Positions 8,869 through 57,393 of a stretch of 64,000 nucleotides of DNA are shown here, in pieces. The notes below the pieces were generated by a model. It was not told the origin of the DNA. It searched no databases and saw only the letters and a list, made by a program, of their open reading frames with translations. The stretch spans positions 16,527 to 80,526 of the forward strand of contig CAZQDY010000004.1 of assembly GCA_964592075.1 (NCBI GenBank), given 5' to 3'. The position numbers were made by a program, and so were the translations under genes. This stretch comes from an uncultured Gaiellales bacterium. Its GTDB lineage: Bacteria > Actinomycetota > Thermoleophilia > RBG-16-64-13. Position 1 is the first letter of the stretch. Each line of letters starts with the position of its first letter.

Positions 8869-10110
8869 ATGAGGCTTTTCGGGACACCGGAAGAGCGCAC
8901 TGGGCGCATGGGAGTGTGGGTTGCTCTGCTCGTCGCCGCCCTAGTGTCGCTCATCCTTCTGGCTGCCATGCCGGCATTCTCGCCTGTCTCCGGCGCGACT
9001 CTCAAGGAGAAGTTGGCCCAGAAACAGGCTGAGTTGAATGCCGCCTACGCCGAGTACATGAAGTTCCAGGACCAGCTCAACGTGCTGGCCGAGAAGCAGA
9101 ACGCGGCCGAGGTCCGGATGGCGAAGATCGATGGCGCCATCAACTCGGTCGAGAACGAGATCAATCTGGCCGCAAAGGACCTCACACTCGCGCAGTCGCA
9201 GTTGGCCGACCGTCTTGTGGAGCTCTACAAGAACAACTACTCGGCGGCGCCGAGCTACCTAGAGGTGCTGTTCGAAGAGTCCGACTTCACCAAGATCATC
9301 GAGCGCTTCTCGCTCATGGGCAGGCTGGCCGATCAAGACCAGGAGCTCTTCGACCAAGTGGCCGACTACCTAGAGAAGTCCCGGGATCGCGAGGGCGCCC
9401 TGATGGAGAAGAAGCAGGCGCAGTCGGAGGTGCTGGAGGAGATCCAGGGGCTTCAGACTGAGATGAACGAGGAGTTCTCGGCCTCGAGCGCGGAATACAA
9501 CCGTCTGATGACCCAGGTGCTCAACCTGCGGGAAGAGGTGCGCAAGGCGGAGGAAGCCGCGCGTCTGGCAGCTGAGCGGGCCGCGGCGGCCAAGGCGGCC
9601 GCGGCCAAGGCCGCAGCTGAGGCCAAGCGCTCCACCGGCTCCTCAAGCGGCTCTTCGTCCTCGTCCGCGTCTTCTTCGCGCCGGAGCGTCACAGTGGTTC
9701 AGACAGGTTCGTTCGTGTTCCCGGTTCAGGGCCCGCATAGCTTCATCGACAGTTGGGGCGCTCCTCGCTCAGGCGGAAGGACGCATACGGGAACCGACAT
9801 CCTGGCGCCGCAAGGGACGCCGGTGGTCGCCTGTGTCAGCGGTACCATCTCGCGGACCAACCGGACCGACAGTGGGCTGGGCGGCATCACCGTGTGGCTG
9901 ACGGGCGGCAACGGCTATCGCTACTACTACGCGCATCTGGACGGCATCGCCTCCGGCATCAGCTCAGGGGTCTCGGTCAGTGCCGGGCAACTCCTGGGGT
10001 GGGTCGGCTCAACCGGCAACGCGGGTAGCTGCAACCATTTGCACTTCGCCATGTACCCTCCCGGCGGCGGGGCCATCAACCCGTACGCGACGCTGCGGGC
10101 CAACGACTGA
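8869..10110 (+). CDS. M23 family peptidoglycan metalloendopeptidase with N-terminal signal/TM and long coiled-coil region (EnvC/LytM-like)
   Basis: C-terminal LytM domain GTDILAPQGTPVVA...GYRYYYAHLDG...GSTGNAGSCNHLHFAMY. Heptad-rich Q/E/A/K region and Ser-rich linker. Confidence 0.8.
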   Translation: MRLFGTPEERTGRMGVWVALLVAALVSLILLAAMPAFSPVSGATLKEKLAQKQAELNAAYAEYMKFQDQLNVLAEKQNAAEVRMAKIDGAINSVENEINLAAKDLTLAQSQLADRLVELYKNNYSAAPSYLEVLFEESDFTKIIERFSLMGRLADQDQELFDQVADYLEKSRDREGALMEKKQAQSEVLEEIQGLQTEMNEEFSASSAEYNRLMTQVLNLREEVRKAEEAARLAAERAAAAKAAAAKAAAEAKRSTGSSSGSSSSSASSSRRSVTVVQTGSFVFPVQGPHSFIDSWGAPRSGGRTHTGTDILAPQGTPVVACVSGTISRTNRTDSGLGGITVWLTGGNGYRYYYAHLDGIASGISSGVSVSAGQLLGWVGSTGNAGSCNHLHFAMYPPGGGAINPYATLRAND

Positions 10111-10123
10111 GCCCGGCCGCCGC

Positions 10124-13100
10124 TCAGCGTCGCGCCGCTCCCGGCTTGAGGATCACGCCTGTCTGCCTCTTGCCGTTGATGACGACCACAAGAGGCGCCG
10201 CCAACCGCAGGTGGCGGACGTACCGGCCTTCCTGAGCCGCGGGTTGCGCGGCCAGCCAATCCCAGTCGAGACTGCCCTCGCCTCCATCGGGATTGACGGT
10301 GAAGTACCCGACCCGGAATGAGGTCAGGTTCTGGAAGAAGTGGCTGCCCTGTGACGGCGTGACCTTGATGTCCTTGAGCCCCGACTCCACTATGACCCGC
10401 GCTCCGGATATCTCCTCCCAGGTCACCGGGATACCCAGCCAGGGGTCGGCGGAGCCCCATCGGCCGAGCCCTATGAGGATGTAGGGAGCTCCTTCGTTCA
10501 CGAGCGCCGCGTTCAGACGGGCGACCTCCTGCGCGATCTCCCGGCTCTTGGCCCTGTCGAACCGAGCACGGTCGACGGCCAGGATGTCCTTGATGTGGTC
10601 CGATCTGCCGTTGCCGAGCACGCTGCTCGAGCCGACCAGGACCCGGTCCGGCTCGATGGCCTCTGTGTCGACCTCGTCGAGCTCGCGCGACAGGACCATG
10701 GGACGTATCTGGATGAAGCCGAAATCCGTGGGTCGTTCCGGCGACCGGGAGAGCTCGACTGCGAACTCTATCTCCACCTCCGTGTTCATGCCCCAGCGGC
10801 CGAGCCCCATCAACCGCTCGAGAGCGGCGGCCAAGGGCAGGGAGCGCTGCTTCAGGATAGGCGCGAACGTCACCAGTCGGACGCCGGACCGGGAGACGCC
10901 GTCGTAGACCGCGTCGTTCTCCGGCGAATAGGTGGAGGCCACCACCGCAAGGGTGCCGTCTGCCTCGGCGTCCTCGAGCGGATAGTGCCGCTCGAGGACC
11001 TCATCGTTCCTGCCGTCGAGATCCAGGGCGATGAAGTCGCGCTGCGAGTGGGCGAGCATGTCCTTGACGGTGGAGAAGTGCATCAGGTGCTGAGGGTGCT
11101 TGGGGCTGAAGGAGAGCGAGGTCCCTCCATCCACGACCATGCGCCCTAACCCCAGCGCCACGGCGGCCACGCCGTCCTCGGCCGCGGACGGCGGGGACGG
11201 GTAGTAGTTGTGGGACCTCCCCACCCCGGCGAAATCGGGGTAGAAGCGGGTGCCGTGATGAGCGCCGACCATCCGCTGGATGATCACCGCCATCCTCTCC
11301 TCCTCGAGGCGGTAAGGCGTGACCTTGAAACAGTTCTTGGCGTAGGTCATGAACGTCGAGGCGTAGACCTTCTTCACGGCGCGGATCAACTGGTAGAGCC
11401 GCACGGCGCCATGCTGATGGTTGTTGGGCAGCAGGTAGGTCTCGTACACACCGGCCAGCGGCTGATACTGCGAATCCTCCAACAGGCTCGATGACCGCAC
11501 GGCCAACGGATAATGGACCAGGTCCAGGTAGGCGGCCAGTCTCCGCTCGACGTCCTCCGGGAAGTCCGCGGCGAGGAAGCGCTTCATGACCTCGGCATCA
11601 TCCGCGCTCTCGAGGGCAAAGCCGCGCAGACCGTTCTCATGGAGGAAGCGATCGAAGATCTCAGTGGTAAGCACCACAGAGGGAGGCACCGTGATCAGCA
11701 TGCCCGGGAACTCCTCGACCACGCTGAAGTCTCGGAGGAGATGCCGAACGAAGGCAAGGGCGCGGGCCTTGCCGCCCAGCGAACCATCGCCGATGCGGGC
11801 GAAGCTGTTGTCGGGATCGAAGGTGGTCGGGTCGAAATCACTCACCGATTCGCGGGTCTGTTCGCGCCGGTAGGTGTTGATCTCCTGGATGAGGTACCGC
11901 CTCCGGCTCTCGGGGGTCTCGCCCTCGGCAGGGGCGCCAAGTCGGAGATGGTGGGCCAGGTGGAACTCGGCACGGGCCTTCAGCCAGCGTGACAGATGGT
12001 TGTGTTCGGCGTGGTAGGTGATCGCCTCGGCCGGGACGGTGCGCAGCATCTCAAGGAGGGTCTTGAGATCGGTCGCCCGTCCTACCACGGTACCGTCGGG
12101 GAGCCGGAAGATGAAGTCGCCGAAGAAGAACCAGTCGACTATGAACCGGCGCAGGTCGTCGAGAAGCGTCGGAGACCCCTTGAGGAGGAACTCGGCCCCC
12201 GCCTCTCTGGCTACACTCTCGCTCTCAGCCCGGCTGGATTGCAGGAGCACCGGTATGTCGGGCCATCTCTCCCGGATCCGGCGGGCGAACTCCGCTCCCG
12301 CCTGCAGATCCAGAGAGCCCTCTCGGGGGAACGACATGTCGGAGATCACCCCGAGCACGTTCTCCTGGTAGGCGGCGAAGTAGTCCCAAGCCTCCTCGTA
12401 GCTGGTGCAGAGCAGGATCTTGGGGCGGGCCCTCATGGCGAGGATCCTGTGCGCCACGTTGCCGGTCCCGGCGATGAGCCTTTGGATGTGGTCGATAGTC
12501 TCGGTATAGATGATGGGGAGGAATGACGAGTAGTAGCGGATGTTGTCCTCGATGAGGAGGACCACCTGCACTCCCGCTACGCCCGCGTCGTAGGCCACGT
12601 TCAGCTTGTCCTCGGCGTATTTGGTGATGGCGAGGAGGATGCGAGGATCGCCCTGCCACAAGAAGATGCGATCCAACTGGGACACGTCGTGGCGGGCCGT
12701 GAACTCCGCCAGCTCGCCACCATCGAAGGCCACCACCACCACCGGGACGTCCAGGCCCGCCTCCTTGACCTTCCGGGCCAATCCGACCGCGTCCATGTCG
12801 CCCAGGTTGATGGCCGACACGATCAGGTCGAACCGGCCCTCGGAGGCTGCGAGGGCCAAGGCCTCCGCCCCGGACGATACGTGAGTGATACCCGTGGTGT
12901 GGTGGAGGTGCAGGTCGAGGAACTCGCCCAGGATGAGCTCGCTCAGCAGGCCGTCTTCCTGGAGGATGAAGGTGTCGTACGTGCTCGACGCCAGGATGAT
13001 GTTCTCGACCCTGCGGGCCATGAGGTGCTGGAAATCATAGGTATGGGTCCATTCCAGCGTCTTCTGTGGCGGTACATCCGGCAAGGTCCCTCCCGGGCGG

Positions 13101-13138
13101 AAGGGCCGGCTGGCTCGCCCGCCGGCCCTCGAGGTCAC
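10124..13138 (-). CDS. large regulatory protein: two atypical CheY-like receiver domains fused to a PEP-utilizing-enzyme N-terminal ATP-grasp (PpsA/PPDK N-terminal) domain plus a ~190-aa C-terminal region of unknown function
   Basis: PPDK_N-type motifs LGGKARALAFV...VPPSVVLTTEIFDRFL, AVRSSSLLEDSQYQPLAGVYETYL, IIQRMVG...FIQIRPM. First receiver lacks the phospho-acceptor Asp (DLIVSAINLGDMDA). No PEP-utilizer mobile His domain is recognisable. GTG start lies 12 nt downstream of the gdhA stop. Confidence 0.65.
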   Translation of the reverse strand: MTSRAGGRASRPFRPGGTLPDVPPQKTLEWTHTYDFQHLMARRVENIILASSTYDTFILQEDGLLSELILGEFLDLHLHHTTGITHVSSGAEALALAASEGRFDLIVSAINLGDMDAVGLARKVKEAGLDVPVVVVAFDGGELAEFTARHDVSQLDRIFLWQGDPRILLAITKYAEDKLNVAYDAGVAGVQVVLLIEDNIRYYSSFLPIIYTETIDHIQRLIAGTGNVAHRILAMRARPKILLCTSYEEAWDYFAAYQENVLGVISDMSFPREGSLDLQAGAEFARRIRERWPDIPVLLQSSRAESESVAREAGAEFLLKGSPTLLDDLRRFIVDWFFFGDFIFRLPDGTVVGRATDLKTLLEMLRTVPAEAITYHAEHNHLSRWLKARAEFHLAHHLRLGAPAEGETPESRRRYLIQEINTYRREQTRESVSDFDPTTFDPDNSFARIGDGSLGGKARALAFVRHLLRDFSVVEEFPGMLITVPPSVVLTTEIFDRFLHENGLRGFALESADDAEVMKRFLAADFPEDVERRLAAYLDLVHYPLAVRSSSLLEDSQYQPLAGVYETYLLPNNHQHGAVRLYQLIRAVKKVYASTFMTYAKNCFKVTPYRLEEERMAVIIQRMVGAHHGTRFYPDFAGVGRSHNYYPSPPSAAEDGVAAVALGLGRMVVDGGTSLSFSPKHPQHLMHFSTVKDMLAHSQRDFIALDLDGRNDEVLERHYPLEDAEADGTLAVVASTYSPENDAVYDGVSRSGVRLVTFAPILKQRSLPLAAALERLMGLGRWGMNTEVEIEFAVELSRSPERPTDFGFIQIRPMVLSRELDEVDTEAIEPDRVLVGSSSVLGNGRSDHIKDILAVDRARFDRAKSREIAQEVARLNAALVNEGAPYILIGLGRWGSADPWLGIPVTWEEISGARVIVESGLKDIKVTPSQGSHFFQNLTSFRVGYFTVNPDGGEGSLDWDWLAAQPAAQEGRYVRHLRLAAPLVVVINGKRQTGVILKPGAARR

Positions 13139-24480: not shown

Positions 24481-25926
24481 GTGCGCATCACCCTGATTGA
24501 ACCTGCTGCCCCGGGCTTCCACGTATACAGCTTCGTCAAGCAGATCCGCATGGGTCTACCTCTTCTCGGAGCCTTGATGACCGCCCGTGGGCATGAGGTG
24601 CGGATCTACGCCGAGAGCCTGAGCGAGGTCGACTGGGACGACGTCCTCAAGTCCGACCTGGTGGGCATCTCCACCACCACGTCCACCGTCATCCGGGCCT
24701 ACCGGTATGCCCAGAAGGTCCGGGACGCGGGCATCCCGGTGGTCATGGGAGGGCCGCATGTCACGTTCCTGGCCGAAGAGGCGATGGATTTCTGCGACTA
24801 CGTCGTGCGCAACGAGGGCGAGGAGACTCTGGTCGAGCTCGTCGATCATCTGCAGGGGCGCGGGTCACTGGAGAACATCCTGGGGCTGACCTACCGGGCT
24901 GCGAATGGCGAGGTGGTGCACAACGCCGCCCGGCCGCTGCTCGACTCCCTGACCGAACTGCCGTGGCCCGATATGAGTCTGGTGGTGAACGGCGGCAAGG
25001 TGAGCCCCGCCCCCGTACTGGCTTCTCGAGGCTGCCCGTACGGTTGTGAGTTCTGCTCCGTGGTGTTGATGTTCGGGCGCAGGGTGCGGACCGTGGAACC
25101 GGTTGAGATCGTCAAGCACATCAAGCGGATGAAACCGCATAAGGTCTTCTTCTACGACGACAACTTCTTCATCAGCAAACGTAGGGGCAGGGAACTGCTG
25201 ACTGAGATGATAAAGCAGCGGCTCGACGTGCCGTTCTTCGCTCAGATCAGGGTGGATTCGGTCTATAAGAACGGTCAGAAGGACACCGAACTGCTCGACC
25301 TCTTGTGGAACGCGGGCTGTCGCATCGTCTACCTGGGCCTGGAGTCAGCCAATCCCGAGACTCTCAAGGAATACCACAAGGAATCAAGCATCGACGACAT
25401 GGCCGGGGGCCTGGAAGCGCTGCATCAAAGGGGGATCAAGACTCACGGCATGTTCGTGTTCGGCGCCGACTCGGATACTCCCGAATCCCTGCAGAAGACG
25501 GCGGAGTTCGCGGTGGACTACGGGCTCAACAGCGCCCAGTTCCTCATCCTCACCCCCCTTCCCGGCACCAGGCAGACCGCCCAACTCGAGACTGAGGGCC
25601 GGATCTTCACGAAGAACTACAGCTTGTACGATGGTCATCACGTGGTGCACTGGCCCAAGCAGATGACCCCGTACGAGTTGCAGGAGGCCGCGCTCAGCGC
25701 ACACAAACGCTTCTACACCGCCCGGCGCATTCTCAACCCTAGGCCCAAGACTCCCATGTATCACAAGCACCAGGTGGAGGGGTATCTGATGAGTAGGGCT
25801 TGGGAGCACGTCCGGGAGAACCGAGAGTACCTGCGCGAGCTGAAGGAGTACTGTGACTCGCAGTATCCTCCCGCGTCCACGGGCCGCGTCTTCAGGCATT
25901 CGGACTTCGAGACCGTCACGCAGTAG
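24481..25926 (+). CDS. B12-binding domain radical SAM enzyme (class B), function unknown
   Basis: N-terminal cobalamin-binding-like domain, then radical SAM cluster motif ASRGCPYGCEFC (Cx3Cx2C). GTG start with GAGG RBS. Confidence 0.8.
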   Translation: MRITLIEPAAPGFHVYSFVKQIRMGLPLLGALMTARGHEVRIYAESLSEVDWDDVLKSDLVGISTTTSTVIRAYRYAQKVRDAGIPVVMGGPHVTFLAEEAMDFCDYVVRNEGEETLVELVDHLQGRGSLENILGLTYRAANGEVVHNAARPLLDSLTELPWPDMSLVVNGGKVSPAPVLASRGCPYGCEFCSVVLMFGRRVRTVEPVEIVKHIKRMKPHKVFFYDDNFFISKRRGRELLTEMIKQRLDVPFFAQIRVDSVYKNGQKDTELLDLLWNAGCRIVYLGLESANPETLKEYHKESSIDDMAGGLEALHQRGIKTHGMFVFGADSDTPESLQKTAEFAVDYGLNSAQFLILTPLPGTRQTAQLETEGRIFTKNYSLYDGHHVVHWPKQMTPYELQEAALSAHKRFYTARRILNPRPKTPMYHKHQVEGYLMSRAWEHVRENREYLRELKEYCDSQYPPASTGRVFRHSDFETVTQ

Positions 25927-26036
25927 CCGTCCGCCCGGCAGGTCCTGCTTGCGCGCAGAGGATTTCCTGCACCCTTTGCGAAAGAGCTATCTAATACTGT
26001 TCGGCTCGGTGAAACGACAGATGCAGGGGAGATAGC

Positions 26037-26795
26037 TTGGCCAAGGTCGTGGCCTTCACGAATCAGAAGGGTGGAGTGGCGAAGACCACCACCACCCTCA
26101 ATCTCGGTGTGGCTTTGCAGGAGATGGGCCACCGCGTACTTGCGGTCGACCTGGATCCCCAGGGCAACCTCACCATGAGCCTTGGGCTGAACCCCGACTC
26201 CGTCAGGCCCAGCATGTACGACGTGCTCGTGAACGGGGTGAGCATCGAGAAGGCTCTGTTCCACCAGGAGCTCGACATCGCCGTCGCCAGTATCGACCTG
26301 GCCGCGGTGGAGATCGCCCTCAGCTCGCTGATCGGGCGGGAAAGGGCCCTCAGCAAGGCTCTCATGCAGGTGCAGGACAAGTACGACTACATCCTTATTG
26401 ACACGCCGCCTTCATTGGGACTGCTCACCATCAACGCACTCACGGCGTCCGACGCGCTCATAGTCCCCGTGCAGTGTGAGTATCTCTCCCTCCGCGGGCT
26501 GGCGCAGTTGGAGCGCACTCTCGAACTGGTGCGGGAGAACCTGAATCCCGACGTGCACATTGCCGGGATCGTGCCGACTATGTACGATGCACGCACGGTC
26601 CACGGGCGGGAGGCCGTCGAGGTGCTCAGAAACAGCTTCGGAGATCTGGTCTTCCAGACCACCATCAACAAGACCATCAGGTTCGCCGAGGCTCCCGTCA
26701 AAGGAGAATCGGTGTTGAAGTACGCGCCGGATAGTCAGGCTGCCAAAGCATATCGCCAGCTTGCGAGAGAGGTGCTCGATGGAAAAAAGATCTAG
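26037..26795 (+). CDS. ParA/Soj/MinD-superfamily P-loop ATPase (no parB partner nearby)
   Basis: Deviant Walker A NQKGGVAKTTTTLNLGVAL...VDLDPQGN. YDYILIDTPPSLGLLTINAL. TTG start with GGGGAG RBS. Stop is 1 nt before the ftsZ ATG. Confidence 0.85.
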   Translation: MAKVVAFTNQKGGVAKTTTTLNLGVALQEMGHRVLAVDLDPQGNLTMSLGLNPDSVRPSMYDVLVNGVSIEKALFHQELDIAVASIDLAAVEIALSSLIGRERALSKALMQVQDKYDYILIDTPPSLGLLTINALTASDALIVPVQCEYLSLRGLAQLERTLELVRENLNPDVHIAGIVPTMYDARTVHGREAVEVLRNSFGDLVFQTTINKTIRFAEAPVKGESVLKYAPDSQAAKAYRQLAREVLDGKKI

Positions 26796-26796
26796 C

Positions 26797-28176
26797 ATGA
26801 AGGACAGCGGCCTCAGCTCTCTCTTCAGGGCGACGGAGGCGGCACGGCCGGTGGCAGAGGAGCCCACACCCGGTATGCCGGAGACCGAGCAGGCTCCGGT
26901 CCAACCCGAGCCCGAACCGGCGCCTGAGCCCGTCGGCCAGACTGAAGAGTCCGGCGGCCCGGCGGAAGAGGAGATCCCGGTCGACGAGCCGCGTCCGGCG
27001 GATACCCTGTTCGGTTCCGCCGCGCCGACCGATGCCGGGCGCCGCACGCTCATACCGCCCTCGCGAAGCTTCCCGGCCGTCATCAGGGTGGTCGGTGTGG
27101 GGGGCGCGGGGACCAACGCCATCAACCGCATGCTCGAAGCGGGGCTCGAGGGTGTGGAGTTCATCGCCGTCAACACCGACGCTCAGGCTCTCGCCATGTG
27201 CGACGCCGACCACAAGCTCCGCATCGGCAAGGACCTGACCAAGGGATTGGGCGGGGGATCCGACCCCAAGGTGGGGCGCGATGCTGCGCTGGCGGCTTAT
27301 GACGAGATCAAGAACGTCCTTCGGGGCAGCGACATGGTATTCATCACAGCCGGGGAAGGAGGCGGCACCGGGACCGGTGCCGCGCCGGTGGTGGCCGAGA
27401 TCGCCCGGTCCCTGGGGGCGCTGACCATAGGCGTGGTGTCGCGACCCTTCTCCTTCGAAGGCAAGCGGCGGGGTCTGCAGGCCCTGGAGGGGGCGCGACA
27501 GCTCAAACAGCGGGCCGACACGGTCATCGTGGTGCCGAACGACAAACTGCTCGAGGTGGCCGACCGGAACACGACCATGGTCGCCGCGTTGCGCCTGGCG
27601 GACGACGTGCTGAGGCAGGGAGTGCAGGGTATCTGCGACCTGGTCACCGTGCCGGGTTTGATCAATCTGGACCTGGCCGACGTGCGGACCATCATGAGCG
27701 GAGCCGGCACCGCGCACATGGGCATCGGCAACGCCCACGGCGAAGGCCGGGCCAAGAGAGCCGCCGAGATGGCCCTCAACTCGTCCCTGCTCGAGACCTC
27801 CATCGACGGCGCCCGCGGCATCCTCCTCAACATCAGCGGGGGCTCCGAGATGTCCCTGCACGAGATCAACGAGGTGGCGGAGACAGTGAGCGAGGCCGCC
27901 GAGCCCGAAGCCAACATCATCTTCGGCGCAGTGGTGGACGAATCGCTGGGAGACAGCCTCTGGGTGACGGTGGTGGCGACCGGCTTCGACGCGACCAGTG
28001 AGGACGTGCTCACCGCCCAGGTGGAAGAAGCGACCAGGCATGACCGCTCCGGGGAGCACCCCGCCCGGGAGGCTCCCGTGGCGGAGCCGGCGGAAGAGGA
28101 GTTCCAGGGGACTCCTCGGACGACGAGCACCGGGCCCGACGACGACGAGCTCGAGGTCCCGCAGTTCCTACGCTAG
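26797..28176 (+). CDS. ftsZ: FtsZ with ~100-aa Pro/Glu-rich disordered N-terminal extension
   Basis: Canonical FtsZ core: VVGVGGAGTNAINRM, tubulin signature GEGGGTGTGAAPVVAEIA, T7 loop NLDLADVRTIM, C-terminal conserved peptide DDELEVPQFLR. ATG at 26797 follows the parA-like stop (TAG-c-ATG). The ORF track extends to 26761, overlapping parA. Confidence 0.85.
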   Translation: MKDSGLSSLFRATEAARPVAEEPTPGMPETEQAPVQPEPEPAPEPVGQTEESGGPAEEEIPVDEPRPADTLFGSAAPTDAGRRTLIPPSRSFPAVIRVVGVGGAGTNAINRMLEAGLEGVEFIAVNTDAQALAMCDADHKLRIGKDLTKGLGGGSDPKVGRDAALAAYDEIKNVLRGSDMVFITAGEGGGTGTGAAPVVAEIARSLGALTIGVVSRPFSFEGKRRGLQALEGARQLKQRADTVIVVPNDKLLEVADRNTTMVAALRLADDVLRQGVQGICDLVTVPGLINLDLADVRTIMSGAGTAHMGIGNAHGEGRAKRAAEMALNSSLLETSIDGARGILLNISGGSEMSLHEINEVAETVSEAAEPEANIIFGAVVDESLGDSLWVTVVATGFDATSEDVLTAQVEEATRHDRSGEHPAREAPVAEPAEEEFQGTPRTTSTGPDDDELEVPQFLR

Positions 28177-28635
28177 ACCGGGCGGATCGGCGCGCAGGTC
28201 GCGCTCGAAGTACAGGCAGCTCTTCTCAGCGAGGCCCAGGCTGCGATAGAAGGTGTGCGCGTCCAGGTTCCAGTACTCGGCCAGGAGGTAGAGCCTGGAG
28301 CAGCCCCTGGCCCGGGCGACCTCCTCGGCCGCGCGCAGGAGCCCCCGGCCCACCTCGGCTCGACGATGATCCTGGGCGACCACCACGTCTTGGAGTTCGC
28401 ACACGGGCGCTGCCGACCAGGTGCTCTCTGAGAAGACCAGGGCGCACATGCCCACCAGGGCATCTTCGTCTTCAGCCACCAGGAACATGTGATTGGATGC
28501 GGCTATGATGGTGGACACGACGGCGCTCAGACGCCCGGGTTCGGGGGGGACGACCCCGTGATGCTCCATGATCTCCTCGAGCAGCGCGAGGAGGCCGGGG
28601 ACATCTGATGGAACGGCTTGCCGGTGGTTGATCAT
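28168..28635 (-). CDS. GNAT family N-acetyltransferase
   Basis: Acetyl-CoA-binding motif region QDHRRAEVGRGLLRAAEE...RLYLL. 155 aa. Confidence 0.75.
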   Translation of the reverse strand: MINHRQAVPSDVPGLLALLEEIMEHHGVVPPEPGRLSAVVSTIIAASNHMFLVAEDEDALVGMCALVFSESTWSAAPVCELQDVVVAQDHRRAEVGRGLLRAAEEVARARGCSRLYLLAEYWNLDAHTFYRSLGLAEKSCLYFERDLRADPPGLA

Positions 28636-30563: not shown

Positions 30564-31784
30564 GTGAATCGATCGACGACTGGTGCGAGCATGACCGAGG
30601 TGGGTCGCGACAGTGGCGTGGACGGTGGGCGGCGGCTGAGGGTCTGGGCTCTCGAGCCCTACTTCGGCGGTTCGCACAAGGCCCATCTCGATGGCCTCAA
30701 GCGCTACTCCGGCCACGACTTCACCCTCTTGACGCTACCGGGGCGCTTCTGGAAATGGCGCATGCACGGGGGAGCTTTGTCTCTTGCCAGGCGCGTCGAC
30801 CAGGCCGTGGCCTCCACCGCCCAGGCTCACCCTCAGGTGCTCTTCGTTTCGGACATGCTCGACCTCCCGGTCTTCCTGGCGGCGGGGGGTCCGGGTCTCG
30901 CCCGGGTGCCGGCGATCCTCTACTTCCACGAGAACCAGCTCACCTATCCCTTGCCCCCCGGGGTGGGGCGTGACCTCGACTACGGGTTCAGGAACCTGAC
31001 CAGCGCTCTGGTAGCCCAGAGGGTCCTCTTCAACAGCGAGTATCACCGGCGGGAGTTCTTCGCCGCGGCAGCCGATCTGCTCCAGGCCATGCCCGACGAG
31101 GTGCCCCTCTGGGTCCTGGATGACGTGGCGGCGAAGGCCGGCGTGCTCCATGTGGGGTGCGATCTCCGCCGCTTGGACCGCCACCGCTCGCGGGCTTTGT
31201 CCGACGCGGCCGCCGGCCGGTGGGGCGACCCGTCCGCGGGACCTCTGCTCTTGTGGAACGCCCGCTGGGAATACGACAAAGCTCCCGGCGACCTGTTCGA
31301 GGCCCTGTACGCACTGAAGGCCTCAGGCGCCGGCTTTCGCCTGGCCATGGCCGGGCCCAACCAGGGCACGCCCACGGCCGAGTTCCTTCGGGCCAGTGTC
31401 GAACTGCGGGACCGGATCGTACAGTGGGGCAAGGTGGCCGAGTCTTCCGACTATGCCTCTCTGCTGTGGGCCTCGGACGTGGTTGTCTCCACCGCCATAC
31501 ACGAGTTCTTCGGGGTGGCGGCGGTGGAGGCGATGTACTGCGGATGCCGCCCCGTGCTGCCTCGGCGGCTGAGCTATCCTGAACTCGTCCCTGCCGAAGC
31601 GCATGGGGATGTGCTATACGGGGAAGGAGAGCTGGTGACGGCGCTGGCCCGGGCGCTGGCGGCGCCGCGCGCTTGGCCTGAGGACCGGCAGCGCGCCTGG
31701 GTCTCCCGCTTCGACTGGGCACACCTGATTGACCGGTACGACGAGGAGATCCAACGCTGTTGGCAAAGTGCGACCCCGGCGTGA
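30564..31784 (+). CDS. glycosyltransferase family 4 with N-terminal DUF3524 domain
   Basis: DUF3524-like LEPYFGGSHKAHLDGL. GT4 C-terminal motif EFFGVAAVEAMYCGCRPVLP. Start GTG 30564 or ATG 30591. Confidence 0.6.
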   Translation: MNRSTTGASMTEVGRDSGVDGGRRLRVWALEPYFGGSHKAHLDGLKRYSGHDFTLLTLPGRFWKWRMHGGALSLARRVDQAVASTAQAHPQVLFVSDMLDLPVFLAAGGPGLARVPAILYFHENQLTYPLPPGVGRDLDYGFRNLTSALVAQRVLFNSEYHRREFFAAAADLLQAMPDEVPLWVLDDVAAKAGVLHVGCDLRRLDRHRSRALSDAAAGRWGDPSAGPLLLWNARWEYDKAPGDLFEALYALKASGAGFRLAMAGPNQGTPTAEFLRASVELRDRIVQWGKVAESSDYASLLWASDVVVSTAIHEFFGVAAVEAMYCGCRPVLPRRLSYPELVPAEAHGDVLYGEGELVTALARALAAPRAWPEDRQRAWVSRFDWAHLIDRYDEEIQRCWQSATPA

Positions 31785-46113: not shown

Positions 46114-48162
46114 CTACGATGTCACCAACAGCAGGAGGTTGTAGAGCAGTTGCGCGCATTCTCCTCTCGAGGCCGGGGCGAAGAAGTCGTAGGAGGGGCC
46201 CACGCCGGCGAGCCCGTCCAGCAGGCCGGCATAGGCGAGCTTGCGGGCATTCAGGTAGTGCTCGTCGGGGTAGAACTGGCTCGCGCCGAAGCTGGGCGTG
46301 AACGAAGCCGGAGGCTCCGACAGGCCGGCCGCCCGCGCGACCATCGTGACCAGTTGCTGGCGGGTGATGTGGTCGTTGGGCGCGAAGGTGGTCGCGGTCT
46401 TGCCGGCGGTGAGGCCGTTGGCCTTGGCCACTGCTATGTAGTCGTGCGGGTAGATGTCGGCGAGATCGTCCGCGCCACAGTCGGTGAAGGGCTTGCTGCT
46501 ATCGGACCAGTCGGCCTCAGAGACCGGCAGTCCCATGACCCCGACGATCATCTTGGCGAAGTGCTTGCGGAACACCGGGTTGTCCGGACCGAAAGTGCCA
46601 TCGGTGTAGCCGGAGATGATGCCCTCGTCGGCGAGCGCGACTATGGCGGTGGCATAGGGGGTCACGCCGGGGATGACGTCGGTGAAGGAGCTGCCGCCCC
46701 CGCCGCCTCCGGGCGCGGTGGAGAAGCTCCACGTGATCGGCGCTCCGGCGAGCGTCTGACCGTCGGCGCCCTCAACGGCTGTGGTGAGGGTCACCTCGTA
46801 GGTGGCGCCGGCCTCCAGGTCGGCCGCTGGGTCAAGGGTGGCCGTGCGGGTGCCGGAGCTGTAGGCGACGGTCGCCGGAAGCGGGCTTCCGCCTGACTTC
46901 TGGACGTAGAAGGTGGCGCCCGTGAGGGTGGAGGCGTCCATGTTCTTGTCGAAGGTGGCCGCTATCGTCTGGCCCACCGGCACCGAAGTCGCCCCGGCGG
47001 CCGGGACCTTGGTGATCACGGAGGGCGCCTCCCCGGCAGTGGTGAAGCTCCATTCCACGGCAGAGGCGAGCGGCGTCCCCGCCCCGCTTTCGACAGCGGT
47101 GGTGAGCCTGACCTCGTAGGTCTCTCCCGGTTCCAGGCCGGCCACGGGGTCAAGGGTGGCCGTGCGGGTGGCGGCACTGTAGTCCACCACGGCCGGCAGC
47201 GGAGTCCCGCCCGACTTCTTGATGTAGAAGGTGGCGCTGGTGAGCGTGGCCGGGTCCATGTCTGTGTCGAAGGTGGCTGCGATCACTTGGCCCACAGGCA
47301 CCCCGGCCGTCCCGTTCGCCGGGATCTTGGTGGTGACGTGGGGCGTGGAGGCGGCGGTGGTGAAGGTCCAGGTGACCGGGGCCTGCATGAACAAGCCGTT
47401 CTCCGCTTTCACTGCCGTAGTGACGGTGACTATGTAGGTCGTGTTCTCATCGAGGGGGTTCTGGGGGGTGAGGGTCACCGTGCGCTTGTCGGAGCTCTTG
47501 GCCAGCGTGGCCGTCTTGAGGCCGCCCCCAGACTCCTGGAGAAAGAACGAGCTGCTGTTGACGGTGGACCAGTCCATGTCGTGGTCGAAGACGACCTGCA
47601 CCTGCTCGTCCACCGGCACGTCCGTTGCTCCGGTAGCCGGTCCATGCATCTTCACCTGCGGCCAGGTGATAGTGGTGAACGACCATGACCCCTCGTTGAA
47701 GAGATGGAGACCGGCGGCCTCGCTCACGATGGGGTTGACCAGATACGCCACATAGGTCGTTCCAGGCTCCAGATTGGCGACCGGGTTGAGCGTCGCCCTG
47801 TTGATGCCGAGCACAGCGTTGTAGGTGTAGGAGGTCGCCGCCGCCACTTTGAGGGTGGCCCCTTGCTTCTTCAGGTGGAAGGTGCCGTCGTTGATGGTGA
47901 TCGCCTCGAGTTTCAGGTTGAAGGAGACTCTCACGTTTGCATCGAGCGGGACCTCTGTTGCGTTCTTTGCCGGCTCCCAGCTCGAGGCTAGGAGATACTT
48001 CCCGATCGGAGGTTCGAAGCCGGGGGGCAGAAGCCCGGGGTCCAGGGCCTGAGCCTGGTCCACGCCGCCCTGGTGGGGGGCGGTGCACACAAGACCCAGG
48101 GCTAAGGCAAACAGCAGGATCAAGGGCAACAGGGTTCTGCGTTGGAACAGGCGCTTCTTCAT
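46114..48162 (-). CDS. S-layer-type secreted protein: signal peptide, tandem Ig-like (Big_5/SbsA-like) domains, three C-terminal SLH domains
   Basis: Signal peptide MKKRLFQRRTLLPLILLFALALG with GGAGG RBS (start 48162). ~88-aa tandem repeats (ATFDTDMDPATLTSATFYIKKSGG... and ATFDKNMDASTLTGATFYVQKSGG...). C-terminal SLH motifs (FTDV...YTDGTFGPDNP..., ITRQQLVTMVARAAGL). The ORF track's 196 upstream codons are not credible. Confidence 0.8.
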   Translation of the reverse strand: MKKRLFQRRTLLPLILLFALALGLVCTAPHQGGVDQAQALDPGLLPPGFEPPIGKYLLASSWEPAKNATEVPLDANVRVSFNLKLEAITINDGTFHLKKQGATLKVAAATSYTYNAVLGINRATLNPVANLEPGTTYVAYLVNPIVSEAAGLHLFNEGSWSFTTITWPQVKMHGPATGATDVPVDEQVQVVFDHDMDWSTVNSSSFFLQESGGGLKTATLAKSSDKRTVTLTPQNPLDENTTYIVTVTTAVKAENGLFMQAPVTWTFTTAASTPHVTTKIPANGTAGVPVGQVIAATFDTDMDPATLTSATFYIKKSGGTPLPAVVDYSAATRTATLDPVAGLEPGETYEVRLTTAVESGAGTPLASAVEWSFTTAGEAPSVITKVPAAGATSVPVGQTIAATFDKNMDASTLTGATFYVQKSGGSPLPATVAYSSGTRTATLDPAADLEAGATYEVTLTTAVEGADGQTLAGAPITWSFSTAPGGGGGGSSFTDVIPGVTPYATAIVALADEGIISGYTDGTFGPDNPVFRKHFAKMIVGVMGLPVSEADWSDSSKPFTDCGADDLADIYPHDYIAVAKANGLTAGKTATTFAPNDHITRQQLVTMVARAAGLSEPPASFTPSFGASQFYPDEHYLNARKLAYAGLLDGLAGVGPSYDFFAPASRGECAQLLYNLLLLVTS
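46800..47450. repeat. intragenic tandem duplication (~318-nt period) encoding repeated Ig-like domains of the S-layer protein
   Basis: Near-identical peptides on both strands at 318-nt offset (antisense ORFs 46913-47119 and 47231-47437 are near-copies). Confidence 0.4.
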
Positions 48163-48294
48163 GGCCCCCTCCTCATCGCATGCGAACCGGGAGCGATCTG
48201 CTCCCTTCATGAATTCGAGTATAGGCTTGTTGGACGGCGCGTCAATGGCCGTTTGCCCGTTTGGTGCCTTGGTGTCGGGCGTGAGGTGGCCTTC

Positions 48295-48303
48295 TGCTAG
48301 AAT
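48295..48303 (+). promoter_or_regulatory. extended -10-like TGCTAGAAT 10 nt upstream of the metG ATG
   Basis: Same 9-mer as upstream of the lsrF-like gene. Its proximity to the ATG suggests a very short or absent leader. Confidence 0.35.
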
Positions 48304-48312
48304 AGCCCGGCC

Positions 48313-50004
48313 ATGGGGCGCTTCTACATCACCACCCCTATCTACTACGTCAACGACGTGCCGCACATCGGGCACGCCTACACCACCGCCGCCGCGGACG
48401 TGGCGGCGAGGTTCCACCGCCAACTGGGCGACGATGTGTTCTTCCTCACCGGCACCGATGAGCACGGCACGAAGGTGGAGCAGGCGGCGGCCGCCCGGGG
48501 GCTGACGCCCAAAGAGCATGTGGACGAGGTGGTGGTCAAGTTCAGGGAAGTGGCGGCGAAAGTGGGGGCCAGCAACGACTTCTTCATCCGCACCACCGAC
48601 TCCGAGCACGAGCGGTACGTGCAGCAGTTCGTGCAGCGCTGCTACGATGCCGGCGATATCTACAAGAAGGCGTACTCGGGCCTCTACTGCCGGGCGTGCG
48701 AGGCCTACTACACCGAGGAGAACCTGGTAGACGGGCTCTGCCCCGACCACGGCACCGCCCCGGTGCTCATGGAAGAGGAGAACTACTTCTTCCGTCTATC
48801 CGCCTTCCAGGATCGTCTGGCGGCCCATTACCGGGACAACCAAGATTTCGTGCGCCCCAAGCACCGCTACAACGAAGCGCTGTCGTTCATCGAGCAGGGG
48901 CTGGACGATATCTCTATCTCCCGTTCCACGTTGAAGTGGGGCATCGGCGTACCATGGGACGAGACCCAGGTCATCTACGTGTGGGTGGATGCCCTCATCA
49001 ACTACATGAGCGCGCTGACCTACGCTCCCGGCCAAGATCTGTTCTCGCGTTTCTGGCCGGCGAGCTACCACCTCATGGCCCAGGACATCCTCAAGTTCCA
49101 CGGCGTGATCTGGCCGGCGCTGTTGATGTCGGCGGGGTATGAGCTGCCGGAGCATCTGTTCATCCACGGCTACCTGAAGCTCGGTGGAGAGAAGATGTCG
49201 AAGACGCGCGGGAATGTGATGGACCCCTTCCCGCTCATCGAGCAGTATGGGGCCGACGCGTTCAGGTTGTACTGCCTGCGTGAGGTGAGTTTCGGGCAGG
49301 ACGGCATGGTGAGCGAGGAGGGCTTCAAGGCCCGCTACAACAGTGAGCTGGCCAACGAACTCGGCAACCTGGTATCGCGGACCGCTTCCATGATCGGCAA
49401 GTACCGGGGCGGCGCGGTGCCCGCGCCGCCCCCCGGCTATGCCGACCCGCCGGAGTGTACCCACGCGCACCCAGGTTCACCGCTCGCCGTGGAGGCAACC
49501 GCGGCCTGTGCCGCGGTCCGCACCCAGCTCGAAGAGCTGGACCTGACGGCGGCCCTGGAGACCATCTGGACCTTCGTGCGCCGCCTGAATCGGTATGTCG
49601 AGGAGCAGGCGCCCTGGAAGCTGGCCAAGGAAGCGGCCGCCGAGGAGGCCGGGGCGGCCCCAGCGGCCCCTGGCGACGGCGGGACCGCCGGAGCGCCGGG
49701 CTTGGTCGCCGACAAGCCCGGCGCCGTCGGCCCTGGGCGGGGCGCCCTCCCGGGGCCGGCTACCGTCGCGCTAGACGCCACCCTGTGGGACCTGGCTGAG
49801 GGGCTGCGCCTTCTGTCGGTATTGCTCCACCCGTTCATGCCGCAGACGGCGATGGCCATCAGGGAGCGGCTGGGGTTGACCTCTGCCGGTTCTGCCTCCG
49901 ACACTGCGACCGGTCCGAGTTGGGACGAAGCGCGATGGGGACTGCTGGCGCCCGGTCTGAGGGTCACCGCGGGGGGCGCTCTGTTCCCCCGGATCGAGGA
50001 CTGA
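48313..50004 (+). CDS. metG: methionyl-tRNA synthetase (short form, with a low-complexity insertion in the C-terminal region)
   Basis: HIGH motif PYIGHAYT region (TTPIYYVNDVPHIGHAYT). KMSKS motif (GEKMSKTRGN). Ala/Gly/Pro-rich insertion near the C-terminus. Confidence 0.9.
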   Translation: MGRFYITTPIYYVNDVPHIGHAYTTAAADVAARFHRQLGDDVFFLTGTDEHGTKVEQAAAARGLTPKEHVDEVVVKFREVAAKVGASNDFFIRTTDSEHERYVQQFVQRCYDAGDIYKKAYSGLYCRACEAYYTEENLVDGLCPDHGTAPVLMEEENYFFRLSAFQDRLAAHYRDNQDFVRPKHRYNEALSFIEQGLDDISISRSTLKWGIGVPWDETQVIYVWVDALINYMSALTYAPGQDLFSRFWPASYHLMAQDILKFHGVIWPALLMSAGYELPEHLFIHGYLKLGGEKMSKTRGNVMDPFPLIEQYGADAFRLYCLREVSFGQDGMVSEEGFKARYNSELANELGNLVSRTASMIGKYRGGAVPAPPPGYADPPECTHAHPGSPLAVEATAACAAVRTQLEELDLTAALETIWTFVRRLNRYVEEQAPWKLAKEAAAEEAGAAPAAPGDGGTAGAPGLVADKPGAVGPGRGALPGPATVALDATLWDLAEGLRLLSVLLHPFMPQTAMAIRERLGLTSAGSASDTATGPSWDEARWGLLAPGLRVTAGGALFPRIED

Positions 50005-57279: not shown

Positions 57280-57351
57280 TGGGGCGTGGCCAAGTGGTAA
57301 GGCAACGGGTTTTGGTCCCGTCATTCGTAGGTTCGAATCCTGCCGCCCCAG
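57280..57351 (+). tRNA. tRNA-Gln (anticodon TTG)
   Basis: Cloverleaf folded by hand: acceptor TGGGGCG/CGCCCCA with U1-A72 pair, D-arm GCC...GGC, anticodon stem ACGGG/CCCGT with loop TTTTGGT, T-arm GTAGG-TTCGAAT-CCTGC. CCA not encoded. Confidence 0.8.
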
Positions 57352-57393
57352 CTTTCTCCTCATCTCCATGGCTCCACTGGGGTACGTATCAGG

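Follow-up and report, generated by a model that had tools for sequence, protein, structure and literature searches.

A conserved, overlapping parA-ftsZ gene pair suggests a division ring positioned directly by a ParA motor in Gaiellales and relatives

In a 64,000-nucleotide stretch of Gaiellales DNA (subsequently named the window) a Soj-like parA gene overlaps an ftsZ gene. We propose that the two make up a module in which FtsZ would at once be the partner of the ParA ATPase and its cargo and which would position the Z-ring, a proposal that we hold with about equal measures of confidence and doubt. We observed an overlap that is conserved in related genomes, a conserved peptide at the N-terminus of FtsZ (N-peptide), a tether architecture behind it and a Soj-like ParA that keeps the aligned residues. 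No published description of such a parA-ftsZ module was found in the literature. The features of the locus are listed in Table 1.

Table 1. Features of the parA-ftsZ locus (positions are those of the window)
Feature	Position	Strand	Description and basis
B12-binding radical SAM gene	24481-25926	+	upstream neighbour
Element 5′ of parA, GGATT...CGAAA...TATC	25957..25999	+	conserved intergenic
parA-like gene	26037..26795	+	252 aa, TTG start; Soj-type deviant Walker A ATPase, KGGVAKTT = residues 11-18 (ORF call)
Shine-Dalgarno-like GAGAGAGGTG	26765..26774	+	within the 3′ end of parA, 6 nt before ATG 26779
ftsZ	26779..28176	+	465 aa with corrected start; 17-nt overlap with parA (26779-26795)
N-peptide MEKRSSMKDSGLSSLFRATE	26779..26838	+	FtsZ residues 1-20; proposed ParA-docking and ATPase-activating peptide
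Disordered acidic Pro/Ala/Glu-rich linker	26839..27027	+	FtsZ residues 21-83; composition, variable length, low pLDDT
Pre-core conserved segment TDAGRRTLIPPSRSFPAV	27028..27081	+	FtsZ residues 84-101; conservation in relatives
FtsZ GTPase (tubulin) domain, GGGTGTG	27082..27561	+	Pfam PF00091, 2.8e-45; residues 96-255 numbered from ATG 26797
FtsZ C-terminal domain (FtsZ_C)	27706..27990	+	Pfam PF12327, 4.8e-34
C-terminal conserved peptide DDELEVPQFLR	28141..28173	+	translation
GNAT gene	28168-28635	-	downstream neighbour, convergent, 9-nt overlap with ftsZ

The pair was present in 78 of 80 species-level genomes, the other two being cut at a contig end. Relatives were counted as informative if enough upstream sequence was available; these are Gaiellales/Thermoleophilia MAGs with FtsZ sequences 51–88% identical. 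The overlap of parA with ftsZ was kept in all 78 informative loci and measures 17 nt in the window and 17–35 nt in the relatives, with the Shine-Dalgarno motif within parA. The ParA homologues of these loci are 65–95% identical and each lies directly upstream of ftsZ. Only the closer clade retains the radical SAM, GNAT, aminotransferase and AP-endonuclease genes next to the pair; in Gaiellaceae their place is taken by an Lhr helicase and a gamma-glutamyltranspeptidase gene. The parA-ftsZ pair is a conserved unit, and its outer neighbours change between clades. The dedicated ParA-FtsZ system suggested in the original prediction thereby receives strong comparative support, as the overlap persists despite the changing flanks.

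The same prediction had described a ParA-like ATPase gene beside a full FtsZ outside any dcw context, with a radical SAM gene upstream, a GNAT gene downstream and neither ftsQ, ftsA, sepF or mur genes nor parB nearby, all of which was borne out by ORFs, Pfam and TIGR00065. The 51 called genes of the window include no dcw, parB, min or sepF genes, and no dcw genes turned up within ±10 kb of the pair in those relatives that were checked; the distal end of the dcw cluster (ftsQ/ftsA/mur) is the typical, not the defining, location of ftsZ. Neither an ftsZ within a dcw cluster of a relative nor a recent insertion of parA was encountered. Furthermore, the window and the 82 loci fetched yielded no parB, minC/E or pomX/Y-like genes, no ParB-like sequence (tblastn with Spo0J residues 1–118) and no second ParA or second FtsZ. 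Coiled-coil genes that could represent a pomX/pomY-type partner are absent at the locus, where the neighbours are the radical SAM gene and ftsZ. With its start overlapping the parA stop, ftsZ sits where an operon of the parAB type has the gene of the partner. In an alignment of the regions upstream of parA from 14 related loci the GGA and CGAAA blocks of the intergenic element are invariant and TATC-A(A/T)T is conserved. Scans for sigma-70 promoters and terminators and for Rfam families gave nothing relevant at the locus; since the sigma-70 consensus scan had no match at the element itself, we can only infer its function, and it is probably the module's own promoter or operator.

The ParA-like protein matched Pfam AAA_31 (1.3e-60, 205 bits) and, in addition, CbiA. 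It carries the deviant Walker A motif KGGxxK[ST] and the overall similarity to Soj that characterize chromosomal-type ParA/Soj proteins. Its best PDB matches were M. smegmatis 4PFS (2.8e-60, 46% identity), M. xanthus ParA 8RAY (2.3e-57, 40%) and T. thermophilus Soj 1WCV (6.8e-53, 46%), compared with ∼1e-19 for MinD structures; the P-loop of the ParA-like protein 4PFS, KGGVAKTT, is identical to that of the window. The score against NCBIfam NF041546 (ParA_partition) was 122.5 bits, below the cut-off of 180, and that against the MinD family TIGR01968 was 71.1 bits, below the cut-off of 212.9. The C-terminus (...AREVLDGKKI) follows directly after the core with no MinD-type membrane-targeting amphipathic helix, and this tail is variable in Gaiellaceae. 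The MipZ profile PF09140 was matched weakly and in part (52 bits, profile positions 2–150 of 262). Being Soj-like, the protein is probably not a member of the MipZ or PomZ family, and any analogy with these two would be one of function alone. In the alignment with 8RAY the DNA-binding R238 of M. xanthus ParA, which we take to be the equivalent of R189 in B. subtilis, corresponds to R215 of the window protein. The partner-pocket residues V116, L150, L152, L155, L187 and L192 correspond to I93, L127, L129, I132, L164 and L169, respectively (M. xanthus numbers for the pocket and the DNA-binding arginine taken from PMC12462528). By alignment, the window ParA is Soj-like and keeps the DNA-binding arginine as well as the hydrophobic pocket for the ParB N-peptide. 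The same residues are expected in any Soj-like ParA working with an unlinked ParB. A ParA homologue search returned, among the best 120 listed, close relatives in every case (at least 85% identical). Three long 'ParA' matches (P0124, P0125 and P0136) were recognized as assembly chimeras with internal duplications and not as fusions.

FtsZ scored 402.5 bits against the NCBIfam ftsZ equivalog TIGR00065 (cut-off 295.2). The GGGTGTG signature, the T7 loop (NLDLAD) and the C-terminal DDELEVPQFLR, which had been noted before, were all read in the translation, and relatives keep an LE(V/P)P.FL motif at the C-terminus. This C-terminal peptide is the usual docking site for membrane anchors, for example SepF or FtsA. 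The best 120 FtsZ homologues listed were all close relatives, at least 61% identical. The parA stop had been described as followed 1 nt later by the ATG of ftsZ; the adjacency stands, but the conserved start and Shine-Dalgarno motif argue against a start at 26797. Most probably the true start is the ATG at 26779 (MEKRSSMKD...), 18 nt 5′ of ATG 26797, and it is this start that gives the 17-nt overlap. An ATG or GTG is found at the equivalent position in every related locus and a GAGG/GGAGG Shine-Dalgarno motif lies 6 nt upstream of it, where every locus inspected has AAGGAGGTG or AGAGAGGTG; the Met at 26797 is Ile or Leu in several relatives. The 465-aa FtsZ has been called independently on metagenome contigs; the exact protein starting at ATG 26797 is absent from public records because public gene calls take the upstream start. 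The NCBI pipeline starts ftsZ late, at MPPSRSFPAV, in relatives P0004, P0027, P0048 and P0111. For annotation this means that the NCBI ftsZ of several relatives begins ∼90 codons too late, so that the N-peptide is removed.

The extension of ∼100 aa in front of the FtsZ core is tripartite, with an N-peptide that is conserved and both basic and hydrophobic, an acidic linker and a pre-core motif. The original prediction had recognized the extension but regarded it as Pro/Glu/Ala-rich low complexity, which does not hold for the first ∼20 residues, as these are strongly conserved. A conserved N-peptide of the ParB/PomX/McdB kind is the key feature absent from that prediction. The N-peptide was found in 78 of 78 informative loci with the consensus M-x-[KR]-[KR]-x-S-[MIL]-[KR]-[DE]-x-[GP]-L-x-x-L-F-[RK]-A-T-E, beginning as MEKRSSMK.. 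or MARRRASMR.. and continuing to L-x-x-L-F. M1, R4, S6, L12, L15, F16 and T19 are invariant in both clades; in 49 distinct Gaiellaceae sequences P12, L13, A14, L16, F17, A19 and T20 are invariant and are encoded by 2–5 codons each. On this pattern of invariant amino acids with synonymous codon variation the N-peptide is under purifying selection as a protein. The linker measures 11–131 aa in the relatives and shows no sequence conservation; acidic residues make up ∼22% of it and basic residues ∼9%. The pre-core segment reads TD.xRR(T/S)LI.PS.SFPAV in the clade of the window and differs in Gaiellaceae, where it is a semi-conserved P-R-L-H-R...AYLAV.

AlphaFold2 gave a poor model of the native FtsZ (63 close homologues, mean pLDDT 55). 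In this model, poor as it is overall, pLDDT was <50 across most of residues 19–98, as would be expected for a disordered extension, and the N-peptide formed two short helical turns, a weak hint of a helix. The maximal hydrophobic moment of the N-peptide is 0.44–0.51 over 11 residues, i.e. it is modestly amphipathic. A phmmer search with a 28-aa N-peptide against all PDB sequences had no match at E ≤ 10. An exhaustive phmmer search with the first 34 FtsZ residues against 1.84 billion representatives revealed no other protein family with the peptide; apart from one spurious repeat protein it matched two N-terminal fragments of FtsZ and nothing else.

Proteins that activate ParA/MinD ATPases start with a stretch of positive charge, which an unstructured part rich in Ala and Pro separates from the functional domain (PMC7993993). 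The FtsZ of the module has this architecture, with a basic N-terminus, an acidic linker of 11–131 aa, the core and a gene overlapping parA. The N-peptides of ParB, PomX and McdB, which act on their own ATPases, share it with the FtsZ N-peptide (PMC7993993; PMC12462528). The ParB motif is a short helix with aliphatic residues and a central Arg or Lys (PMC12462528); this central residue has no counterpart at the aligned position of the N-peptide, where the basic residues lie further N-terminal. We compared the N-terminus of T. thermophilus Spo0J, MSRKPSGLGRGLEALL (checked in 1VZ0), with MEKRSSMKDSGLSSLF of the window FtsZ. In local BLOSUM62 alignments with Spo0J residues 1–20, shuffled sequences matched or exceeded the observed score in 2.6% of cases for the N-peptide of the window type and in 21% for that of the Gaiellaceae type. 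Owing to these weak shuffle statistics we do not claim homology of the N-peptide to ParB; the resemblance is one of type and not demonstrable homology.

In the mechanism that we propose, ParA-ATP dimers would attach non-specifically to the nucleoid in the manner of Soj-type ParAs, and FtsZ would present its short basic and hydrophobic peptide at the end of a flexible acidic tether of 60–130 aa. The N-peptide would dock on ParA and activate the ATPase, like the N-peptides of ParB, PomX and McdB on theirs. As an FtsZ polymer would display many N-peptides, it would act as a multivalent cargo; tethered to the nucleoid, it would deplete ParA locally and the resulting ParA flux could drive it to mid-nucleoid. 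The Z-ring could thus be placed without Min, Noc, MipZ/ParB or PomXY. From the sequences we infer that ParA and FtsZ bind physically, that the ATPase is activated, that the regulation is positive in sign and that the Z-ring is positioned as the outcome. The data suggest that in Gaiellales and relatives, a whole order of soil actinobacteria, it is a ParA motor that directly sets the site of the division ring. As to origin, ftsZ may have been captured into a parAB-type partner slot in an ancestor of Gaiellales and related Thermoleophilia, the ParB-like peptide being either kept or acquired convergently, with the FtsZ polymer becoming the ParA cargo of a minimal two-protein self-positioning system; this scenario is possible, though on the whole we are inclined to doubt it.

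The N-peptide could have nothing to do with ParA and instead serve as a weak membrane tether, a degron or a phosphorylation site (R-x-S), with parA encoding a segregation or PldP-like ATPase that is merely co-expressed with ftsZ and couples segregation and division transcriptionally. Such a role would agree with the modest amphipathicity (hydrophobic moment 0.44–0.51), the invariant R-x-S and the statistically weak similarity to ParB peptides, and the N-terminal peptide of cyanobacterial FtsZ serves polymerisation and not ParA (PMC6175996). However, peptide and parA overlap occur together in 78 of 78 informative genomes while the surroundings are reshuffled, and proteins whose genes are translationally coupled in the parAB manner are usually partners. 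For a membrane-targeting helix three large hydrophobic residues are few, and FtsZ retains its normal C-terminal anchor-binding peptide. We regard a ParA-independent peptide as unlikely. A link between ParA and FtsZ could also exist with the opposite sign. Nucleoid-bound ParA would then block or disassemble FtsZ over DNA and rings would form only in DNA-poor zones, resembling nucleoid occlusion or MipZ. The conserved operon, the N-peptide and a Soj-like DNA-binding ParA fit inhibition equally well, and MipZ is generally known as a ParA-like ATPase acting directly on FtsZ. Against this, the window ParA is far nearer to Soj/ParA than to MipZ (205 bits for AAA_31, 52 bits for a partial MipZ match), a long flexible tether is better suited to tethering a cargo than to steric inhibition, and studied Actinobacteria build Z-rings over unsegregated DNA (PMC3989709). 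None of these three points is decisive, and we judge an inhibitory ParA to be quite improbable.

A location outside the dcw context and the unusual extension had also raised the idea that the window ftsZ is a second, specialised paralog, the canonical ftsZ lying in a dcw cluster at another site of the genome. This found no support: the TIGR00065 score (402.5, equivalog cut-off 295.2) is well above threshold, all GTPase motifs and the C-terminal peptide are retained, and neither the window nor the 82 loci contain a second copy. In the clusters of the 120 best FtsZ relatives the length given for the longest contig never recurred, as it would have done for a shared contig. One MAG alone has two copies, but these have the same synteny and one of them is full of frameshifts, a sign of strain or assembly redundancy. 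A paralog is very unlikely. That the adjacency is fortuitous or the extension an artefact of a wrong start is hardly credible. NCBI does start several relatives later (MPPSRSFPAV), but synonymous variation beneath a conserved protein sequence, the conserved start with its Shine-Dalgarno motif and the overlap in 78 of 78 loci refute this as far as sequence evidence goes.

How the Z-ring is placed in Actinobacteria is an open question; Min, Noc/SlmA and MipZ are absent (PMC3989709; PMC10482377; 10.1101/2025.07.02.662783). The parA-ftsZ locus offers a conserved two-gene candidate mechanism that is directly testable in a large and environmentally abundant lineage with at least one cultured representative, Gaiella occulta. 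If the proposal is true, no simpler system of positive Z-ring positioning would be known, and this would be the first case of a cytoskeletal division protein that itself bears an ATPase-activating peptide. The principle of ParA/MinD systems, an N-peptide grafted onto a cargo, would then reach a cytoskeletal polymer, and the pair could provide compact parts for division of synthetic cells. A capture of ftsZ into the partner slot could also hint at what the orphan actinobacterial ParAs (PldP/Rv1708) do and at the kind of partner they work with, both long sought.

Of the known systems, ParABS (Soj-Spo0J) shares with the module a Soj-like ATPase (46% identity to T. thermophilus Soj, DNA-binding arginine and pocket aligned), a partner gene directly downstream with overlapping stop and start, and a partner whose N-terminus combines a basic stretch with a short hydrophobic helix, putative in FtsZ, ahead of an unstructured region (PMC12462528). 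Unlike in ParABS, the partner in the window is FtsZ, with no ParB CTPase or ParB/Srx domain and no parB found nearby, and its peptide lacks the central Arg/Lys at the aligned position, the similarity not being statistically significant. PomXYZ of Myxococcus xanthus resembles our proposal in that a DNA-bound ParA-family ATPase places the Z-ring positively at mid-nucleoid. However, the Myxococcus cargo is a separate PomX/PomY condensate that recruits FtsZ, whereas the window peptide is on FtsZ itself and pomX/pomY-like genes were not found. In Caulobacter and other Alphaproteobacteria the ring is placed by MipZ, likewise a ParA-like ATPase with a direct action on FtsZ, but MipZ is an inhibitor that needs ParB at the poles, and the FtsZ of that system is not known to have an N-peptide. 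The window ParA differs in matching the MipZ profile weakly and in part (52 bits) and in having no linked ParB.

The orphan ParAs PldP (C. glutamicum cg1610), Rv1708 and MSMEG_3743 show division phenotypes and bind DNA or the nucleoid, and their activating partner is not known (PMC3989709; PMC10482377; 10.1101/2025.07.02.662783). Like them, the window ParA is an actinobacterial orphan ParA with no adjacent parB; by identity alone it is equally close to 4PFS (46%) and to Thermus Soj. The genes scpA, scpB and xerD, presumably neighbours of the pldP/Rv1708 locus, were not seen in the 64-kb window, and no such N-extension is known from the FtsZ of Corynebacterium and Mycobacterium. Heterocyst-forming cyanobacteria possess a clade-specific conserved N-terminal extension of FtsZ that functions in polymerisation and divisome contacts (PMC6175996); unlike the window N-peptide it is not linked to a ParA gene, and the two sequences are unrelated. 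As proposed here, the parA-ftsZ module adds a variant to the known ParA/MinD positioning systems.

The window, which has a G+C content of ~65%, contains 51 genes as called by GC3, nearly all of which were scanned against Pfam. Among the genes identified in this way are dnaE, his genes, gcvP, pgi, dinB, prs, pth and mfd, and the scan yielded no dcw, sepF, parB, min or pom genes. The open reading frame that follows the ParA-like gene scores 402.5 bits against the NCBIfam model TIGR00065 (cut-off 295.2), and GGGTGTG, NLDLAD and the C-terminal DDELEVPQFLR can be read in its translation; judged by these features it is a bona fide FtsZ. The domain matches and the lack of dcw, sepF, parB, min and pom genes in the scanned window thus confirm the original prediction of a ParA-like ATPase paired with FtsZ outside a dcw context. 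The predicted neighbors, a radical SAM gene upstream and a GNAT gene downstream, were both matched as well. No NCBIfam model reached its cut-off for either flanking protein, and a tie of these two genes to the parA-ftsZ pair (hereafter the module), for example in FtsZ modification, is pure speculation.

Features of the parA-ftsZ module and of other parts of the window
Feature	Position	Strand	Remarks
M23 peptidase gene	8869-10110	+	PcsB-type coiled-coil domain; possible EnvC/PcsB-like cell-separation hydrolase; the window's only other gene with a plausible division link
Receiver-like/PEP-utilising gene	10124-13138	-	1004 aa; response-regulator receiver-like region and PEP-utilising (PPDK_N) ATP-binding domain, an unusual fusion
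B12-binding radical SAM gene	24481-25926	+	upstream of parA
Conserved non-coding element	25957-25999		GGATTTCC..TTGCGAAAG..CTATCTAAT; ~40-80 nt upstream of parA
parA	26037-26795	+	ParA/Soj-type ATPase, 252 aa; Pfam AAA_31 (1.3e-60), CbiA, weak partial MipZ match
ftsZ	ends at 28176	+	next after parA; Pfam Tubulin and FtsZ_C domains
Pre-core motif	27028-27081		TDAGRRTLIPPSRSFPAV; second conserved motif of the FtsZ extension, just before the GTPase core
GNAT gene	28168-28635	-	opposite strand to ftsZ, 9-nt overlap with the ftsZ end
Glycosyltransferase gene	30564-31784	+	QTMAN_N (N-terminal domain of tRNA-queuosine alpha-mannosyltransferase)
Big_5/SLH gene	46114-48750	-	878 aa; four Big_5 Ig-like repeats and two SLH (S-layer homology) domains, suggesting an S-layer or cell-wall-anchored surface protein
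tRNA-Gln	57280-57352	+	single tRNA, anticodon TTG; sole Rfam/ARAGORN match in the window

The ftsZ start had been predicted at ATG 26797, which does not agree with the related loci. In all of their junctions examined, an ATG or GTG is present 18–21 nt upstream of this position; GAGG or GGAGG is found 6 nt before the upstream codon, and the overlap between ftsZ start and parA stop amounts to 17–35 nt. Several genomes have Ile or Leu in place of the methionine of the predicted start (residue 7 or 8), which marks this position as conserved for hydrophobicity and not as a start. For metagenome contigs carrying an identical ParA, independent gene calls also yield a 465-aa FtsZ from the upstream start. 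From the kept start codon, the GAGG or GGAGG sequence and these calls, we place the start most probably at ATG 26779. In the overlap of the more distant Gaiellaceae loci the FtsZ frame MAR[RKN]RAS is kept and the ParA tail is variable (GATPREHA, GAQAREHA, GAKSREHA and others). The NCBI records of four relatives (P0004, P0027, P0048 and P0111) begin at MPPSRSFPAV, deleting all but the last ten residues of the FtsZ extension, that is ~90 residues including the N-peptide (its first ~20 residues); in this lineage the start is systematically annotated too far downstream.

The best 120 FtsZ homologues listed, 61–95% identical and derived from Thermoleophilia/Actinomycetota metagenome bins, have N-termini with a three-part architecture in common. 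A near-invariant peptide, (MEKRSS)MKDSGLSSLFRATE, is followed by an acidic Pro/Ala-rich linker of non-conserved sequence and very variable length (11 to 131 aa in the relatives, with ~22% Asp/Glu and ~9% Lys/Arg), and the conserved motif TD.xRR(T/S)LI.PS.SFPAV stands directly before the FtsZ core. Gaiellaceae carry a different, semi-conserved PRLHR...AYLAV at the latter position. The AlphaFold2 model of FtsZ, which is poor overall, gives pLDDT values <50 over most of residues 19–98. The Pro/Glu/Ala-rich extension of the original prediction is therefore real but not of low complexity throughout, since both the N-peptide and the pre-core motif are conserved. Across 49 distinct Gaiellaceae sequences, up to five synonymous codons are used at each of positions 11–24 with the amino acid remaining invariant; outside the parA overlap the N-peptide is thus clearly translated and constrained.

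For the conservation of the gene pair, 185,579 species-representative genomes were scanned once and the best 80 loci were taken, all of them labelled Gaiellales, Gaiellaceae, Thermoleophilia or unclassified Actinomycetota. A ParA homologue (65–95% identical) ends a few bases from the FtsZ start in 78 of these loci, as determined by tblastn with the window's proteins; the remaining two have <310 bp of upstream sequence. At loci that the pattern search had skipped, the N-peptide was found by manual inspection as well. The radical SAM, GNAT, class-IV aminotransferase and AP-endonuclease neighbors occur only in the closer clade of relatives (FtsZ at least 62% identical), where the B12-binding radical SAM gene always precedes parA and the GNAT gene is convergent with ftsZ, their 3′ ends overlapping by 9 nt. 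The QTMAN_N glycosyltransferase gene is also kept downstream of the module in this clade. In Gaiellaceae, an Lhr helicase and a gamma-glutamyltranspeptidase gene flank parA-ftsZ. Since the pair is kept while the flanking genes differ by clade, parA-ftsZ itself is, by its genomic distribution, the conserved unit. No dcw genes, ParB, second ParA or second FtsZ were present in any related locus fetched.

One metagenome-assembled genome, MFD05942.bin.2.29, contains two loci (L008 and L010) with the same gcvP-rSAM-parA-ftsZ-GNAT synteny, L010 being full of frameshift-split genes. This doubling probably reflects strain or assembly redundancy or long-read indel errors and not a paralogous module. Three 'ParA' entries of 374–387 aa (P0124, P0125 and P0136) were rejected as real genes: they contain an internal tandem duplication of ~120 residues and resemble chimeras assembled from two strains. 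In the non-coding element upstream of parA, 14 related loci have the GGA and CGAAA blocks without any change, and Gaiellaceae also retain CGAA. The element does not match the sigma-70 consensus and probably serves the module as a promoter or operator of its own.

Among PDB entries, the window ParA best matches an M. smegmatis ParA-like protein (PDB 4PFS/5IHP; E 2.8e-60, 46% identity), which was entered under the name 'cobyrinic acid a,c-diamide synthase' and has the KGGVAKTT P-loop in common with it, as well as M. xanthus ParA (PDB 8RAY; E 2.3e-57, 40% identity), T. thermophilus Soj (PDB 1WCV; E 6.8e-53, 46% identity) and MinD (PDB 1ION and 1G3Q; E about 1e-19). It stays below the NCBIfam cut-offs for both MinD and plasmid ParA and lacks a C-terminal membrane-targeting helix. 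Residues were mapped via the 8RAY alignment (chain index + 19 = M. xanthus number; offset checked by the D60A site and the L150/L152/L155 pattern), with residue roles taken from PMC12462528. The ParB-binding pocket V116, L150, L152, L155, L187 and L192 of M. xanthus corresponds to I93, L127, L129, I132, L164 and L169, and the DNA-binding R238 to R215. The PDB sequence matches and the aligned residues point to a ParA of the Soj type that presumably binds the nucleoid and has kept its partner pocket intact; conservation of pocket and DNA-binding residues is expected in any Soj-like ParA.

The N-terminus of ParB, MinE, ParG, PomX, McdB and TlpT contains a segment with many positive residues, which often lies on an unstructured region; when such a segment is 'grafted onto an interaction domain', an ATPase-activating protein (AAP) can result (PMC7993993). 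Read from its sequence, the window FtsZ has this AAP design: a basic N-terminal stretch, an unstructured region and an interaction domain. Its gene sits in the usual parB slot, directly after parA. In chromosomal ParB the motif, a short helix that combines aliphatics (L11, L15, L18, I19) and a central Arg or Lys, binds the M. xanthus ParA pocket (V116...L192) in synergy with DNA, paired peptides being far more effective than single ones (PMC12462528). T. thermophilus Spo0J starts with MSRKPSGLGRGLEALL (confirmed in PDB 1VZ0), the window FtsZ with MEKRSSMKDSGLSSLF and Gaiellaceae FtsZ with MARRRASMREGPLAELF. Against Spo0J residues 1–20, 2.6% of shuffled sequences score at least as high as the N-peptide of the window type and 21% at least as high as that of the Gaiellaceae type, and the basic residues lie elsewhere than the central Arg of ParB. 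The similarity is weak, a resemblance of type with no claim to homology.

FtsZ is likely the partner of the adjacent ParA. A filament of FtsZ would present many N-peptides, providing avidity like that of closed ParB clamps or PomX filaments, and on the basis of this multiplicity, the AAP design and the parB slot we propose a ParA-driven centring of FtsZ. Nucleoid-bound ParA-ATP dimers would tether FtsZ polymers via the N-peptide, the polymers would stimulate ATP hydrolysis and deplete ParA locally, and the resulting ParA flux could center FtsZ assembly on the nucleoid, as with PomXYZ clusters. Such positioning fits the observation that Z-rings of Actinobacteria form over unsegregated DNA (PMC3989709). 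ParA may instead act on FtsZ as an inhibitor. The N-peptide may also have a role unrelated to ParA, such as contact with the membrane or regulation at an R-x-S site; however, N-peptide and parA overlap occur strictly together, which speaks for a functional connection.

Full-text searches of non-subscription literature returned nothing on a parA-ftsZ operon or on a ParA-type peptide at the N-terminus of FtsZ, and we rate the module as a variant of the ParA/MinD cargo-positioning systems without a prior description found. Its interest is high because ParA-driven centring would offer a concrete, testable mechanism of Z-ring placement in a phylum in which placement is unsettled. PldP/Rv1708, whose partner is still to be found (10.1101/2025.07.02.662783), is likewise an orphan actinobacterial ParA with a link to division, a likeness short of established orthology. 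As proposed for the module, MipZ is a ParA-like ATPase with FtsZ as its direct target, but MipZ depends on ParB, whereas no linked ParB was present here, and the match to the MipZ profile is weak and partial. PomXYZ shares the proposed positive positioning of the Z-ring by a DNA-bound ParA and an activator with a basic N-peptide, whereas the module is without a PomX/PomY scaffold and carries the peptide on FtsZ itself. With ParABS it has in common the operon layout, a Soj-like ATPase and a partner bearing an N-peptide, but that partner would be FtsZ instead of ParB.
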